A stretch of 64,000 nucleotides of DNA from Enterobacteria phage P922: the sequence record OR999189.1. One strand, given 5' to 3'. The notes under the pieces were generated by a model. That model did no database searches. It had not been told where the DNA came from and saw nothing but the letters and a program-made list of their open reading frames with translations. Position 1 is the first letter of the stretch. The number at the start of each line of letters is the position of its first letter. The position numbers and the translations under genes are program-made. Positions 36,290 through 64,000 of the stretch are shown here, piece after piece.

Positions 36290-36362
36290 TGGGAATTAGC
36301 CAAGTTGGTAAGGCACTGGATTTTGATTCCAGGATGCAAAGGTTCGAGTCCTTTATTCCCAG
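36290..36362 (+). tRNA. tRNA-Gln (anticodon UUG)
   Basis: Hand-folded cloverleaf: acceptor TGGGAAT/ATTCCCA, anticodon loop ttTTGat, T-loop GGTTCGAGTCC. Confidence 0.8.
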
Positions 36363-36363
36363 C

Positions 36364-36450
36364 GCGAGAATGGTCAAATTGGTAAAGGCACAGCACTTAA
36401 AATGCTGCGGAATGATTTCCTTGTGGGTTCGAGTCCCACTTCTCGCACCA
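36364..36450 (+). tRNA. tRNA-Leu (anticodon UAA)
   Basis: Acceptor GCGAGAA/TTCTCGC, anticodon loop ctTAAaa, long variable arm, encoded CCA. Confidence 0.8.
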
Positions 36451-36455
36451 AATTT

Positions 36456-36529
<74 letters not shown>

Positions 36530-36539
36530 ATTTAATTTA

Positions 36540-36612
36540 CTCCGTGTAGCTAGTTTGGTAGAGCGCCTGATTTGGGATCAGGAGGTCCAAGGTTCAAATC
36601 CTTGTATGGAGA
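36540..36612 (+). tRNA. tRNA-Pro (anticodon UGG)
   Basis: Anticodon stem CCTGA/TCAGG with loop ttTGGga; T-arm CAAGGTTCAAATCCTTG; acceptor stem has two G-U pairs. Confidence 0.7.
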
Positions 36613-36614
36613 CT

Positions 36615-36704
36615 GGAGGCGTGGCAGAGTGGTTTAATGCACCGGTCTTGAAAACCGGCAGTCGCTCCGGCGACTCATAGGTTCAAATCCTATCGCCTCC
36701 GCCA
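36615..36704 (+). tRNA. tRNA-Ser (anticodon UGA)
   Basis: Acceptor GGAGGCG/CGCCTCC, anticodon loop ctTGAaa, long variable arm, encoded CCA. Confidence 0.8.
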
Positions 36705-36709
36705 GTTTT

Positions 36710-36785
36710 GCTGATTTAGCTCAGTAGGTAGAGCAACTCACTTGTAATGAGAAGGTCGGCGGTTCGATTCCGTTAATCAGCACCA
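36710..36785 (+). tRNA. tRNA-Thr (anticodon UGU)
   Basis: Acceptor GCTGATT/AATCAGC, D-arm GCTCAGTAGGTAGAGC, anticodon loop ctTGTaa, encoded CCA. Confidence 0.8.
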
Positions 36786-36786
36786 A

Positions 36787-36861
36787 GGCCCTGTAGCTGG
36801 AAGGTTCAAGCAAGCGACTCATAATCGCCAGATGGTGGTTCAATTCCACCCAGGGCCACCA
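36787..36861 (+). tRNA. tRNA-Ile/Met (anticodon CAU; probably the lysidine-modified Ile type)
   Basis: Acceptor GGCCCTG/CAGGGCC, anticodon loop ctCATaa, T-loop GGTTCAATTCC, encoded CCA. Confidence 0.7.
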
Positions 36862-36870
36862 AATTAATTT

Positions 36871-36957
36871 GGGGAGTTATCCCGTAGAGGTAGCGGTGTG
36901 GACTGTAAATCCATTGTCATTGCGACTCGGGTGGTTCGACTCCATCACTCCCCACCA
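36871..36957 (+). tRNA. tRNA-Tyr (anticodon GUA)
   Basis: Acceptor GGGGAGT/ACTCCCC, anticodon stem-loop GTGGA-ctGTAaa-TCCAT, long variable arm, encoded CCA; D-arm fold uncertain. Confidence 0.6.
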
Positions 36958-36961
36958 ATTT

Positions 36962-37036
36962 GGATGTGTAGCTCAATGGCAGAGCGATCGCCTGTTAAGC
37001 GATTGGTTATAGGTTCGAATCCTATCACGTCCGCCA
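36962..37036 (+). tRNA. tRNA-Asn (anticodon GUU)
   Basis: Acceptor GGATGTG/CACGTCC, D-arm GCTCAATGGCAGAGC, anticodon loop ctGTTaa, encoded CCA. Confidence 0.75.
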
Positions 37037-37040
37037 AATC

Positions 37041-37116
37041 CGAGGCATAGCTCAGAAGGAAGAGCAAGGACCTTCTAAGTCCTAGGTCGTAGGTTCGATC
37101 CCTACTGCCTCGACCA
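37041..37116 (+). tRNA. tRNA-Arg (anticodon UCU)
   Basis: Acceptor CGAGGCA/TGCCTCG, D-arm GCTCAGAAGGAAGAGC, anticodon loop ctTCTaa, T-loop GGTTCGATCC, encoded CCA. Confidence 0.75.
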
Positions 37117-43314: not shown

Positions 43315-43341
43315 ACATTCATCAACTACTTGGAGGAAATT

Positions 43342-43767: not shown

Positions 43768-44022
43768 ATGTATCAAGAATTTATCGCTGAAGCAGATGCC
43801 AAAGGCCCCAAATTTAAAGTTAAAGCTTTCATTGGTGATGCCGAAGATTTTGGCTCATTAAAACGTAATGGGTATTCTTTCTCAGGCGGCAATGGTAAAG
43901 AAATAAACACCTATGCAAAACGTAGTGAAATTGCTTATGTTGTAGTAAGCCCTAAAGTAGATGTTGACGATATTGGATACGATTTTAACAACTTCGGAAT
44001 TATTTCTGGCGGTAAAGCTTAA
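43768..44022 (+). CDS. internal-protein-like protein with variant leader (MYQEFIAEA, lacks KT)
   Basis: 84 aa; leader matches the capsid targeting consensus except for loss of two codons after Met. Confidence 0.5.
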   Translation: MYQEFIAEADAKGPKFKVKAFIGDAEDFGSLKRNGYSFSGGNGKEINTYAKRSEIAYVVVSPKVDVDDIGYDFNNFGIISGGKA

Positions 44023-44025
44023 ACA

Positions 44026-44055
44026 GTTTACGCTTAAGTATTAATATGGTATAAT
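44026..44055 (+). promoter_or_regulatory. early promoter for the IPIII-like gene
   Basis: GTTTAC at 44026, TGGTATAAT at about 44047..44055. Confidence 0.5.
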
Positions 44056-44083: not shown

Positions 44084-44659
44084 ATGAAAACGTATAAAGA
44101 ATTTATCGCTGAAGCTTCTGTGGAAAAGGCCAAAGGCATTAATAAAGATGAGTGGACTTACCGAGGAAATGGTTTTGACCCTAAAACAGCCCCTATTGAA
44201 CGATACTTAGCTACAAAAGCTTCCGACTTTAAAGCTTTCGCTTGGGAAGGACTTCGCTGGTGTACTGATCTAAATATTGAAGTTGATGGGCTTAAATTTG
44301 GCCATATTCAAGATGTTGTTGCTAGTAACTTGGACGCAGCTTTTGTTAAAGCTGACGGTGACCTTCGTCGCTGGAATTTAAAATTATTCTCTAAACAGAA
44401 AGGCCCAGTGTTTGTGCCTAAAGCTGGTAAATGGGTTATTGATAATAAATTAGCTAAGGCTGTCAACTTCGCCGGTCTTGAATTTGCCAAGCACAAATCG
44501 GCATGGAAAGGTCTTGATGCAATGGCTTTCCGTAAAGAATTCGCCGAGGTTATGACTAAAGGCGGCTTTAAGGCAGAACTAGATACCTCTAAAGGTACGT
44601 TTAAAGACGCTAATGTTCAGTATGCTTACGCCGTTGCTAATGCAGCCCGTGGTAATTAA
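44084..44659 (+). CDS. internal head protein III-like
   Basis: 191 aa; leader MKTYKEFIAEA; size close to T4 IPIII (about 194 aa). Confidence 0.6.
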   Translation: MKTYKEFIAEASVEKAKGINKDEWTYRGNGFDPKTAPIERYLATKASDFKAFAWEGLRWCTDLNIEVDGLKFGHIQDVVASNLDAAFVKADGDLRRWNLKLFSKQKGPVFVPKAGKWVIDNKLAKAVNFAGLEFAKHKSAWKGLDAMAFRKEFAEVMTKGGFKAELDTSKGTFKDANVQYAYAVANAARGN

Positions 44660-45379: not shown

Positions 45380-45705
45380 TGACAGATACGCAACTTTTCG
45401 AATATCTTTATTTTTCGCCAAAAACTATTAAAAATAAATTGGTGAATCATTTTGAAATTTTGGCAAATAACAACGTCTTGAGCGAATTTTATCCCAAGCA
45501 ATACAAATTACAAAAAGGTGTATTCAAAGGATGCAGAGTTTTGTGCACTGCTCCTAATGCAAGATTAATGAATAAAATTCCATATTTTACCATGGAATTT
45601 ATTGATGGACCTTTTAAAGGACTAATCACCCAAAGTTTAATGGCATATGATTCTGAGCCATTTTTAATTAAAGAACAATCTTGGATAAATTTATTTTCTA
45701 ATTGA
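45376..45705 (+). CDS. hypothetical protein
   Basis: 109 aa from ATGATG overlapping the upstream stop. Confidence 0.45.
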
Positions 45706-45713
45706 GAGGTTAT

Positions 45714-46076
45714 ATGAAAGCATACCAAATTCTTGAAGGCACACATAAAGGTACTATTTATTTTGAAGATGGTATTCAAGCACGAATTATTGTTTCTAAA
45801 ACCTTTAAAGAGGATTCTTTTGTAGACCCAGAAATTTTCTATGGTTTGCATGCCCGTGAAATTGAAATTGAAACACAACCTACAGTTAAAATCGAGGGTG
45901 GTCAACACCTGAACGTTAACGTTCTGCGTCGTGAAACTCTGGAAGATGCAGTTAAGCATCCGGAAAAATATCCGCAGCTGACCATCCGTGTATCCGGTTA
46001 TGCAGTTCGCTTTAACTCTCTGACTCCGGAACAGCAGCGCGACGTTATCGCTCGTACCTTTACTGAGAGTTTGTAA
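45714..46076 (+). CDS. autonomous glycyl radical cofactor (GrcA/YfiD-like, T4 Y06I-like)
   Basis: C-terminal about 60 aa ([60 protein letters not shown]) matches E. coli GrcA from memory, including the RVSGY glycyl radical motif. Confidence 0.8.
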
Positions 46077-46297
46077 TGGCAAAGATAATTATTGAAGGTT
46101 CTAAAGATGTGCTAAATGCTTTCGCCGAGTGGTTTAGTAATTCAGGCGAACAGCAATTTAATGAAGCATGGAACATGGGTGATATTAGTGGAATTTATCC
46201 TACGACAGAAATTTCTGTTCAGGGATATGGCATTCATGAACCTATTCGTTTAGTTGAATATGATTTGGGTACTGGTGAGGAAGTAAAATATGATTGA
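46076..46297 (+). CDS. hypothetical protein
   Basis: 73-aa ORF with ATG start, translationally coupled to neighbours. Confidence 0.45.
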   Translation: MAKIIIEGSKDVLNAFAEWFSNSGEQQFNEAWNMGDISGIYPTTEISVQGYGIHEPIRLVEYDLGTGEEVKYD

Positions 46298-46556
46298 AGA
46301 TATTAAGGGTTATAAGCCACATACTGAAGAGAAAATCGGTAAAGTGAATGCTATCAAAGATGCTGAAGTTCGTTTAGGACTTATCTTTGACGCTTTATAC
46401 GATGAATTCTGGGAAGCACTAGATAATTGCGAAGACTACGAATTCGCAAAGAATTATGCTGAAAGCCTCGATCAGCTAACTATTGCTAAAACGAAACTCA
46501 AAGAAGCCAGTATGTGGGCTTGTCGTGCTGTGTTCCAACCAGAGGAAAAATATTAA
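46290..46556 (+). CDS. hypothetical protein
   Basis: 88-aa ORF overlapping the upstream stop. Confidence 0.45.
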
Positions 46557-46893: not shown

Positions 46894-47355
46894 ATGACTA
46901 TCAACACAGAAGTTTTTATCCGTCGAAATAAGCTCCGTCGTCACTTTGAGTCGGAGTTTCGTCAAATTAACAATGAGATTCGTGAGGCATCAAAAGCAGC
47001 AGGGGTCTCATCGTTTCATCTAAAATATTCTCAGCATCTTCTTGATCGTGCAATTCAACGGGAGATTGATGAGACATATGTTTTTGAATTATTCCACAAA
47101 ATAAAAGACCATGTTTTAGAAGTTAATGAATTCCTGAGTATGCCTCCGCGTCCTGACATTGACGAGGATTTTATTGATGGGGTTGAATATCGTCCTGGGC
47201 GTTTAGAAATCACAGATGGAAATCTTTGGCTTGGATTTACAGTTTGTAAACCTAATGCGAAGTTCAAAGACCCGTCGCTTCAGTGCAGGATGGCAATTAT
47301 TAACAGTCGTCGTTTACCAGGAAAGGCTTCTAAAGCAGTAATTAAAACTCAATGA
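46894..47355 (+). CDS. regB: site-specific endoribonuclease RegB
   Basis: 153 aa; N-terminus MTINTEVFIRRNKLRRHFESEF consistent with T4 RegB from memory; early promoter upstream. Confidence 0.7.
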   Translation: MTINTEVFIRRNKLRRHFESEFRQINNEIREASKAAGVSSFHLKYSQHLLDRAIQREIDETYVFELFHKIKDHVLEVNEFLSMPPRPDIDEDFIDGVEYRPGRLEITDGNLWLGFTVCKPNAKFKDPSLQCRMAIINSRRLPGKASKAVIKTQ

Positions 47356-51810: not shown

Positions 51811-52368
51811 GTGAGTGAGTCGAAGAGAATCAATATGAAACGATTAGTACTAGAAGTTAGTTCACTTTTTGGTGAATTGGCTATAGAAAAAGTAAATAAT
51901 ATGTATCGTTTGACGCAAGAAGACGATATGCTATATTTTACGCCTAGCGAAATTATTCATTTAACCCAAATTGAAAAACCTTACACTGATAAAATTGTAA
52001 GCATTAATGATGAGCATAAAATTCATTTCTATTCTTTATGCCCAGGATTTAACATTGAAAGCGAGTCAATATGCTTATCAATTAATAATTGGGATAATTT
52101 TATAACTAAAATTAAATATTTTTATTATTCTAACGAAAGAAAACATGGTTTAAAATGGTTTAAAAATTGCAATGCTATTATTACTAACGATTGCAATCAG
52201 AATGATGAAACTCTTTTAAATGTATCAAAATGTTATGAAGAGGGAGATGTCTTAACTATTCGTCAAATTGATGATTTTCGATCACATATTGTCACATTTA
52301 CCAAAGACGAAGCTATTGCGCTAAAGACTTATCTTGATTCTGTCATTCCAACTATGATTTCAAAGTGA
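51811..52368 (+). CDS. hypothetical protein, paralog pair member 1
   Basis: 185 aa, GTG start after GGAG RBS; C-terminus SKDEAIALKTYLDSVIPTMISK resembles the next ORF. Confidence 0.5.
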   Translation: MSESKRINMKRLVLEVSSLFGELAIEKVNNMYRLTQEDDMLYFTPSEIIHLTQIEKPYTDKIVSINDEHKIHFYSLCPGFNIESESICLSINNWDNFITKIKYFYYSNERKHGLKWFKNCNAIITNDCNQNDETLLNVSKCYEEGDVLTIRQIDDFRSHIVTFTKDEAIALKTYLDSVIPTMISK

Positions 52369-52374
52369 GGAAAT

Positions 52375-52896
52375 ATGTTTATTTCAAGTGAAAGCGGTTT
52401 AATTCGTGTTGAATTTAAAAATGACATCTTCCTTATTCAAGGAGATGATATTATTAAAATGAGTTATGACGAAATCAAGAAAATTTGTCATATTCTTGAA
52501 AGTCGTGGAAAAGGAAATGCTACTATCGATATAGGTGATTTATGGGTGACACTTTATGAAGTATCCGAAGGATTTAACATTGAAGATGAAAACAACATCT
52601 TAGCTATTGATAAAAGAAGTGATTTGTTTGATGTGTTAAAAGTTTATGAACAGTCAAACGGTGGAAGAAAAGCTGCATTGATTTATCAAAAACCACATTC
52701 ATGTGGAACTGCTTCAATCATTTCAAATATTGAAGATGAAACTGATACTTATATGTGTGTTTTAAAAGCTGGTGGTGACCGTCATCCGGATTTTATTTCT
52801 ATTCGTCAAAACAATGGAGAAATTTCATTATCAAAATCAGAAGCTGAAGCTATGATTAAGTATTTAACAACTGTTACACCTTCAATGAAAGGATAA
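52375..52896 (+). CDS. hypothetical protein, paralog pair member 2
   Basis: 173 aa; C-terminus SKSEAEAMIKYLTTVTPSMKG parallels the upstream ORF. Confidence 0.5.
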   Translation: MFISSESGLIRVEFKNDIFLIQGDDIIKMSYDEIKKICHILESRGKGNATIDIGDLWVTLYEVSEGFNIEDENNILAIDKRSDLFDVLKVYEQSNGGRKAALIYQKPHSCGTASIISNIEDETDTYMCVLKAGGDRHPDFISIRQNNGEISLSKSEAEAMIKYLTTVTPSMKG

Positions 52897-63539: not shown

Positions 63540-63580
63540 AAATAATAAATACCCTTATCTATTTAAGGTAAGGGTTTATT

Positions 63581-64000
63581 ATGTTATTGACTGGCAAATT
63601 ATATAAAGAAGAAAAACAGAAATTTTATGATGCACAAAACGGTAAATGCTTAATTTGCCAACGAGAATTAAATCCTGATGTTCAAGCTAATCACCTTGAC
63701 CATGACCATGAATTAAATGGACCGAAAGCAGGAAAGGTACGTGGATTGCTTTGTAATCTCTGCAATGCTGCAGAAGGTCAAATGAAACATAAATTTAATC
63801 GTTCTGGTTTAAAGGGACAAGGTGTTGATTATCTTGAATGGTTAGAAAATTTACTTACTTATTTAAAATCCGATTACACCCAAAATAATATTCACCCTAA
63901 CTTTGTTGGAGATAAATCAAAGGAATTTTCTCGTTTAGGAAAAGAGGAAATGATGGCTGAGATGCTTCAAAGAGGATTTGAATATAATGAATCTGACACT
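63581..64000 (+). CDS. 49: recombination endonuclease VII (Holliday junction resolvase), 3' end outside window
   Basis: Open frame to the window end (140 codons); MLLTGKLYKEEKQKFYDAQNGKCLICQRELNPD with Zn-binding Cys and HDH motif matches T4 endo VII from memory. Confidence 0.9.
   Translation, partial: MLLTGKLYKEEKQKFYDAQNGKCLICQRELNPDVQANHLDHDHELNGPKAGKVRGLLCNLCNAAEGQMKHKFNRSGLKGQGVDYLEWLENLLTYLKSDYTQNNIHPNFVGDKSKEFSRLGKEEMMAEMLQRGFEYNESDT

Follow-up and report, generated by a model that had tools for sequence, protein, structure and literature searches.

The radical-domain half of the resident T-even phage gene vs.6 was probably overwritten by host-templated gene conversion

Introduction

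The closest described precedent for the exchange of gene segments between a T4-like phage and its host comes from psbA and psbD of T4-like cyanophages, auxiliary genes of patchy G+C content within which host and phage segments are exchanged (Sullivan 2006, PMC1484495; Zeidner 2005). Here we analyse vs.6 (Y06I), a gene at positions 45714-46076 of a 64,000-nucleotide (nt) stretch of Enterobacteria phage P922 (record OR999189.1; the whole stretch is called the window), which is predicted to encode a glycyl radical cofactor of the GrcA type. Like psbA and psbD, vs.6 has a segment of host identity with supported breakpoints, and a donor that can be identified and that differs with the host of the phage. 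Unlike them, it carries a single, sharply bounded tract with 98-100% identity to an identified host species; the patch lies at a structural domain boundary, its direction from host to phage is clear, and the phages that carry it are enterobacterial T-even phages that degrade host DNA. We propose that vs.6 is a resident T-even "spare part" gene whose radical-domain half has quite probably been overwritten by host-templated gene conversion, a reading that is based on sequence comparison.

The gene and the biochemical role of its product are already known, at textbook level, for T4. The radical site of pyruvate formate-lyase (PFL) is Gly734, and residues 61-127 of the Escherichia coli protein GrcA (YfiD) reproduce PFL residues 693-759, while GrcA residues 1-60 are disordered and aid the binding and activation of cPFL (PMC8683613). 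T4 Y06I, like YfiD, receives its glycyl radical from the PFL-activating enzyme (PFL-AE) and reactivates oxygen-cleaved PFL (Wagner 2001, as summarised in PMC8683613). The literature that we searched yielded only papers on protein function, with none on the nucleotide patch shared by vs.6 and grcA or on the Klebsiella parallel described below; T4 annotators may have noted the pattern, and we claim no priority. What makes the locus of interest is that a virulent phage that destroys host DNA still carries a tract of ~170 nt identical to the host chromosome. This offers a clean, sequence-defined case for gauging how often a lytic phage recombines with the chromosome of its host, and it brings the exchange of patches in auxiliary genes, known from cyanophage psbA, to enteric T-even phages.

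A host-identical block in a T4 vs.6 ortholog

The window is a segment of a Tequatrovirus (T4-like) genome; the 5-kb stretch around vs.6 shares 98.3% identity with phage vB_EcoM_Nami and 98.2% with EcNP1. The gene runs from an ATG at 45714 to a TAA at 46074-46076 and encodes 120 amino acids (aa), beginning MKAYQILEG and carrying the motif RVSGYAV at residues 92-98; both the coordinates and the glycyl-radical motif had been read correctly in a first-pass annotation made from the sequence. The product is identical to T4 vs.6 (Y06I; NP_049730) at 118 of 120 residues, and the two genes, both of 363 nt, align colinearly and without gaps. In T4 the gene lies at 63557-63919 of NC_000866, between vs.7 and vs.5, downstream of denV and upstream of regB, and the annotated order is denV, vs.8, vs.7, vs.6, vs.5, vs.4, vs.3, regB, vs.1, vs. 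The window agrees, with Pfam matches to Pyr_excise (denV) at 43339, to Acb2/Tad1 (vs.4) at 46290 and to REGB_T4 at 46894. The first-pass annotation had set the locus apart from that of T4, as upstream of regB and not near tk; T4 vs.6 is in exactly the same place. The window gene is the ortholog of the already known T4 vs.6 and not a new system. T4 vs.6 has the same length, the same locus and the same E. coli-identical 3′ block, and differs from the window gene by two residues (T54P and R73H in T4) and at a few synonymous sites, some of them in the two codons that open the tract and one in a GAA/GAG codon near the end.

When the gene is compared by blastn with 5,426 complete E. coli genomes, only 45894-46076 aligns, at 97.8% identity and invariably within grcA; the part of the gene upstream of 45894 finds no alignment in these genomes. 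In a codon alignment with E. coli grcA, the maximum chi-square (101) places a breakpoint at 45897, and none of 2000 permutations reached as high a value. Identity to E. coli grcA is 0.51 to the left of this point and 0.98 to the right, and the longest exact run that the two genes share, 170 nt, starts there (45897-46066). The break falls at codon 61/62 (GrcA residue 68/69), a few residues inside the GrcA domain boundary. Specifically, E. coli identity begins at GAAGGTGG (EGG) on the left and ends within the last three codons on the right, where related phages show a mixture of phage-type and E. coli-type (GAA AGC CTG) states. Beyond the TAA the sequence is that of the phage (TAATGGCAAAG, overlapping the start of vs.5) and not the E. 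coli terminator; both junctions thus lie inside coding homology, with no host flanking DNA alongside. Across the 64-kb window, the block is the only stretch that megablast aligned to grcA in all 5,426 E. coli genomes; the only other match listed for the window is tRNA-Tyr-like, on a plasmid record, and the median genome has a second matching place.

The composition of the gene changes at the same position. The G+C content at third codon positions (GC3) rises from 0.18 in the N-terminal half to 0.43 in the block, against a phage background of 0.234 +/- 0.068 in 60-codon windows, among which the block ranks in the top 0.4%. Five of its six Leu codons are CTG (7% in phage usage) and all three Pro codons are CCG (14%). 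The first-pass annotation had described an AT-rich, phage-like N-terminal half joined to a block with host-style codons, and had proposed an alignment to grcA and a GC3 scan to place the boundary; the two approaches bear out the break, and CTG and CCG hold up as host-style codons, but CGT and GGT, which it had also listed, are frequent in the phage as well and do not discriminate.

Protein conservation does not account for the identity. In phage GAP161 the block is identical to E. coli GrcA at 60 of 60 residues, yet its nucleotides are 82.8% identical and only 32 of 60 third positions agree; the window block agrees at 58 of 60 (P = 6e-14 under the GAP161-based expectation). Identity of a merely protein-level kind, which the first-pass annotation had named as the finding that would count against a transfer, is thus not what is seen. 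Identity between the block and E. coli grcA is 98.3%, at a synonymous divergence (dS) of 0.05-0.15, whereas over the same block E. coli and Citrobacter amalonaticus are 92.8% identical and E. coli and Salmonella 83.9%; the dS of E. coli grcA is 0.37 (C-terminal part) and 0.62 (N-terminal part) against Citrobacter, and 1.04 and 0.80 against Salmonella. Because the block is closer to E. coli than these relatives are, the donor is Escherichia itself and the event is recent, which supports the host origin that the first-pass annotation had suggested for the 3′ half.

Assembly contamination was considered as a source of the block and rejected: the block is present in T4 itself, including the T4 sequence X04567 from 1986, and in hundreds of independent isolates and metagenome contigs. 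It is a caveat for tools that call host-like k-mers in phage genomes contamination.

Separate tracts in several phage genera and from two host species

Population-level numbers in this section come from BLAST identity bands, and IMG/VR contributed six Tequatrovirus or Mosigvirus alleles. Identity of GenBank phage records to the E. coli block is bimodal, with 638 records at >= 95%, 8 at 90-95% and 809 below 90%; the N-terminal halves of the same phages range from 80% to 100% identity to the window. Between Tequatrovirus and Mosigvirus, third positions differ at a mean of 14 of 61 in the N-terminal half and at 1.9 of 56 in the tract interior (per-pair Fisher p from 1e-5 to 0.04), and dS is 0.39-0.65 in the former and 0.07-0.18 in the C-terminal block. 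Members of both genera have no interior mismatch to E. coli at all. For the window and HX01, for example, identity is 1.00 in the tract, against 0.8-0.9 in the flanks and 0.72 immediately downstream, and the nearest fixed difference between the genera lies ~10 nt upstream of their common left junction. Differences from E. coli in the interior are nearly all singletons; those found in more than one phage cluster in the last three codons (GAA/GAG, AGC/AGT, CTG/TTG/CTA), and at the adjacent sites AGY and YTG all four combinations occur among Tequatroviruses. Such a mosaic edge is what conversion would leave if it recurred and ended at varying points close to where homology stops.

A parallel case is found in phages of Klebsiella. 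In Jiaodavirus (phages KPV15, 15882-6-5 and K65PH164), a metagenomic relative and an IMG/VR fragment, GC3 is ~0.3 in the N-terminal half and ~0.60 in the C-terminal half. A tract of ~158 nt has 1-5 mismatches (97-99% identity) to a K. pneumoniae grcA allele, present on 21 gut-metagenome contigs that were picked out with a degenerate pattern; we assign the allele to K. pneumoniae because its 7.9-kb flank is 99.3-99.7% identical to that species. A scan of 80 grcA loci in GTDB, K. pneumoniae not being among them, gave a best match to the Jiaodavirus block of 88%. The left junction is in the same place as in the E. coli phages, the right one ~25 nt before the stop codon, and the patch brings LLDAVEH in place of LEDAVKH. 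In total, 138 phage records are >= 90% identical to the K. pneumoniae-type allele. Taken with the data from the E. coli phages, these alignments indicate that two host species donated the tract, in separate events, to at least two or three phage genera.

Two individual alleles differ in length. In KPV15 (L083, 1499-1860), vs.6 measures 362 nt, with a deletion of 1 nt relative to other Jiaodaviruses, and is annotated as two coding sequences (CDSs), the host-identical tract being intact; the deletion is either a sequencing error or the mark of a pseudogene. In Escherichia phage OES_C-2 (L220, 1325-1681), the gene is 6 nt shorter through a slip in the GAAATTGAAATTGAA repeat of the N-terminal half (EIEIE to EIE), and its 3′ end (GAG AGC CTG) is the most E. 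coli-like among those examined.

The alternative that survives best is a single conversion per host species, followed by spread of the patch from phage to phage and no continuing exchange with hosts. T-even phages recombine with one another at high frequency (PMC3016280); Tequatrovirus and Mosigvirus have the left junction and the GAG and AGT states in common, and Tequatroviruses isolated on Yersinia and Salmonella keep the E. coli block. However, for the patch alone to pass from one genus to the other, crossovers would have to fall inside ~10 nt on its left side and ~9 nt on its right, and differences shared along lineages are not what the singletons of the interior show. In addition, pairs within a genus can have a near-identical N-terminal half and a more diverged tract (HX01 and p000v, dS 0.055 and 0.204; 15882-6-5 and K65PH164, 0.026 and 0.195), which suggests that their tracts have separate histories. 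We consider this alternative unlikely.

A probable patch in a resident gene

The host-like half is best read as a host-templated conversion patch, a secondary overwrite in a resident phage gene, and not as an illegitimate capture. Two lines of evidence lead to this: the N-terminal half is itself homologous to that of GrcA, and syntenic vs.6 genes elsewhere are phage-coded. An hhalign comparison of 10 phage with 12 host N-terminal halves gives a probability of 97% and an E-value of 1.3e-10 over 59 aligned columns. Homologs of vs.6 occur in Karamvirus, Slopekvirus, Pseudotevenvirus, Krischvirus, Gualtarvirus, T5-like phages (Epseptimavirus) and jumbo Vibrio phages, and in the T4-like genera vs.4 or regB adjoins the homolog at loci with annotated neighbours. 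These homologs encode the same small protein, with a radical domain that is nearly invariant in protein, but the DNA of that domain is unconverted: synonymous sites are of phage type, third-position identity to any sampled host is ~0.4-0.55, and there are 22-45 mismatches in 159 interior nt. A third line comes from the two junctions inside coding homology, without host flank, which together with the first two are the signature expected of homologous recombination (gene conversion).

The first-pass annotation had proposed a chimeric gene made by host capture. The host-derived 3′ half of that proposal stands; its unrelated phage half does not. A one-off capture, in which an unrelated phage open reading frame (ORF) gained a piece of host grcA on a single occasion and the chimera then passed down vertically, would explain the sharp break in identity and composition within the ORF and the left junction common to Tequatrovirus and Mosigvirus. 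It is contradicted by an N-terminal half that is homologous over its full length to that of GrcA, and is hard to square with sister genera that hold an intact, syntenic vs.6 with phage codons in the radical domain, and with junctions that bring no host flank. Nor would it leave a tract that is ~7-fold less diverged than the N-terminal half at third positions between genera, or another host's allele in Jiaodavirus. The likelihood of such a capture seems to us very small.

Transfer in the opposite direction, or none at all, can be dismissed more briefly. Identity by itself has no direction, but E. coli grcA is uniform in GC3, at 0.41 for its N part and 0.43 for its C part, and fits host usage, while the block is an outlier in the phage, and together these indicate a direction from host to phage; among enterobacterial hosts the block diverges alongside the N part, as vertical descent predicts, and we give next to no credence to a history in which E. 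coli and K. pneumoniae received the 3′ half of grcA from T-even phages. Equally negligible is identity without transfer, through convergent selection on codons or an RNA element, for although protein constraint on the 59-aa domain is extreme in every phage and host, GAP161 with its identical protein falls far short of the window at third positions, E. coli and Salmonella differ by a dS of ~1.0 in the same block, and Klebsiella phages follow the synonymous choices of K. pneumoniae and not those of E. coli. Both candidates were rejected on these comparisons of block with host.

Two further observations concern homologs outside the converted genera. In Providencia phage PSTRCR_121 (L089, 1284-1685; Gualtarvirus), the gene adjoins denV and the variable residues of the radical domain are of PflB type (MNREMLLEAMEDP...LTKEQQ), which suggests that pflB, too, can be a source of, or a match for, the spare parts of phages. 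In human-associated metagenomes, IMG/VR contigs (L113-L118) encode vs.6-like N-terminal halves between the host and T4 types (SIWLIEDNKARCLVAK...EYREV) and C-terminal domains with Pasteurellaceae-type residues (NPDKYPQ; best host match Haemophilus, 81%); they may reflect older host matching in another phage lineage.

A model for conversion and its limits

In the model that we favour, T4-like phages would long have carried a full-length grcA homolog at the vs.6 locus. In Tequatrovirus and Mosigvirus, ~175 nt encoding the structured radical domain would have been overwritten by homologous recombination with chromosomal grcA as the template, and in Jiaodavirus the same overwrite would have used the K. 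pneumoniae allele. The tract would begin where nucleotide similarity between host and phage begins (EGGQHLNV, the start of the conserved domain) and end at the stop codon; its limits would lie there because homology is absent past either point. Copying from host DNA may take place during recombination-dependent replication. Unconverted phage alleles share exact runs of 20-35 nt with host alleles, and such runs could seed a first conversion; when the DNA contains cytosine, short homologies suffice for efficient recombination by T4, plasmid marker rescue being one example. Once a host-like allele is in place, its near-identity to the chromosome would ease repeat conversion, so that the interior stays at 0-5 mismatches to the host allele and the remainder of the gene goes on diverging as fast as phage DNA normally does.

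A stronger form of this model is that virulent T-even phages continue to renew the radical-domain half of vs.6 with copies taken from the chromosome of their current host species. Alleles matched to host species, the homogenised interior of the tract and its mosaic edges are the basis for this idea, to which we would assign somewhat less than an even chance. Conversion might be favoured by matching the spare part to the PFL and PFL-AE of the host, with a neutral by-product as the alternative. If conversion is ongoing, recombination between virulent phages and host chromosomes would have in vs.6 a natural reporter, tractable by experiment, and the gene would also keep a molecular record of the recent host species. 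The tract could help to infer the recent natural host of T4-like isolates.

Several points weigh against the conversion model. T4 degrades host DNA early in infection, which should limit the template. The process is inferred wholly from patterns in sequence, and the alleles compared in detail are few (13 from E. coli phages and 5 of Jiaodavirus type). The left junction shared by Tequatrovirus and Mosigvirus is what a single event would also give, and homogenisation does not proceed quickly, given the 4-5 interior mismatches of p000v and K65PH164. Among the phages of the collection, none has a Salmonella-type block (best full-length match 84%) or a C. amalonaticus-type block (best full-length match 92.3%, from E. 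coli-type blocks). Krischvirus and T5-like phages that infect E. coli, and Slopekvirus that infects Klebsiella, are unconverted. The missing block types and the unconverted lineages imply a process restricted to certain lineages; the three converted genera all belong to Tevenvirinae.

The gene product and its role

The vs.6 protein matches Pfam Gly_radical (PF01228) at 67.2 bits (cutoff 22.2), and in a search of PDB sequences it matches 6OWR, the nuclear magnetic resonance structure of E. coli YfiD/GrcA, with an E-value of 4.6e-42, and PflB residues 697-759 with 4.8e-26. Its residues 61-120 correspond to GrcA residues 68-127, with 100% identity in protein and 98% in DNA. Gly95 of RVSGYAV matches Gly734 of PflB and, through an offset of seven residues in the 6OWR alignment, Gly102 of GrcA. 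The NCBIfam GrcA profile (TIGR04365) is matched at 154.6 bits (E 1.4e-45; residues 20-120 on profile positions 25-126), against 233.9 for E. coli GrcA; counting against the assignment, this score lies under the 170-bit equivalog cutoff, a shortfall that we attribute to the diverged N-terminal half, which alone has no match in Pfam or NCBIfam. These matches support the view, already put forward in the first-pass annotation, that the protein is a GrcA/YfiD-type glycyl radical cofactor, with the role of PFL "spare part" known from its T4 ortholog.

Comparison with the two host proteins defines how far the likeness extends. E. coli GrcA is likewise a stand-alone protein (~14 kDa), and the N-terminal halves are homologous, but that of vs.6 is only about 29% identical and seven residues shorter; the gene is also phage-borne and probably transcribed early instead of being under host anaerobic regulation. 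The C-terminal glycyl radical domain of PflB (residues 693-759; 1CM5, 2PFL) is the fold element that the spare part replaces, and its motif is kept in vs.6. However, PflB is a 759-aa enzyme with a catalytic barrel, whereas vs.6 is a small stand-alone ORF, flanked by neighbouring genes, that lacks the barrel; at variable residues vs.6 is closer to GrcA than to PflB, which has MNREMLLDAMEN.

In infected cells, the host PFL-activating enzyme PflA would install the radical on the vs.6 glycine, as is known for the T4 ortholog, and the radical domain would then substitute for the C-terminal piece that host PFL loses when oxygen cleaves it at Gly734, restoring PFL activity. The rescued enzyme would keep acetyl-CoA, ATP and formate flowing in the anaerobic or microaerobic gut, and the phage may benefit by sustaining fermentative energy metabolism in microaerobic hosts. 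Two uses had been suggested in the first-pass annotation, repair of PFL and repair of the phage's own anaerobic ribonucleotide reductase NrdD. The former agrees with the activity documented for the T4 ortholog. NrdD is also a glycyl radical enzyme that oxygen cleaves, but a role there is highly improbable: the domain is identical to that of GrcA and close to PflB, none of the 33 PDB sequences matched at E <= 0.001 is an NrdD chain, the large ORFs examined between 50 and 62 kb of the window include no nrdD, and for the T4 ortholog the summary cited above reports activation by PFL-AE and rescue of cleaved PFL.

Features of the locus and neighbouring genes

The features of vs.6 and its surroundings are collected in Table 1. 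The promoter-like element upstream may serve as an early promoter for the same-strand run vs.8-vs.7-vs.6-vs.5-vs.4-vs.3, although matches of promoter type in the region are no more numerous than in shuffled sequence in the consensus scan.

Table 1. Positions of vs.6 and associated sequence features in the window
Feature	Position	Strand	Basis
Sigma-70-like promoter: TTTACG, 17-nt spacer, TGnTATAAT	44027..44055	+	Consensus scan, 10/12 matches
Shine-Dalgarno-like GAGAGG, 4 nt 5′ of the ATG	45704..45709	+	Read from sequence
vs.6 / Y06I ortholog CDS, predicted 120-aa GrcA-type autonomous glycyl radical cofactor	45714..46076	+	ORF, T4 identity, Pfam and PDB matches
N-terminal half, phage-type composition (GC3 0.18), diverged homolog of the GrcA N-terminal half	45714..45896	+	Identity, hhalign
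Putative host-derived conversion tract, 170-nt exact match to E. coli grcA	45897..46066	+	blastn, chi-square scan, exact-run search
Codon GGT, predicted radical glycine Gly95 of RVSGYAV	45996..45998	+	Sequence; 6OWR and 1CM5 alignments
Last three sense codons GAG AGT TTG, right edge of the tract	46065..46073	+	Alignment of related phages

An antisense ORF of 197 aa (45489-46082, minus strand) overlaps vs.6 and reaches a GC3 of 0.62 in 60-codon windows, because the host-like block is there read backwards; it is almost certainly spurious, though able to mislead gene callers. Two genes downstream of vs.6, the ORF at the vs.4 position (46290-46556, plus strand) matches the Pfam Acb2/Tad1 hairpin domain at 71 bits, a family of known cyclic-nucleotide sponges that act against CBASS (the cyclic oligonucleotide-based antiphage signalling system). 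Between denV and the vs.8-like gene, two plus-strand ORFs (43768-44022 and 44084-44659) start MYQEFIAEA and MKTYKEFIAEA, respectively, and have no Pfam match; at that place T4 carries no genes, its denV being followed directly by vs.8. We take these starts to resemble the capsid-targeting leader of T4 internal proteins, and the two ORFs are probably variable internal-protein genes.

Elsewhere in the window, a cluster of 10 tRNA genes lies at 36290-37116 on the plus strand (Gln, Leu, Gly, Pro, Ser, Thr, Met(CAT), Tyr, Asn and Arg); T4 carries eight tRNA genes. A plasmid record of E. coli O111:H8 includes a tRNA-Tyr with 90.5% identity to the region of the phage tRNA-Tyr gene. At 51811-52896, also on the plus strand, two neighbouring paralogous ORFs each match the N- and C-terminal domains of a y05I-like putative transcription factor of T4.

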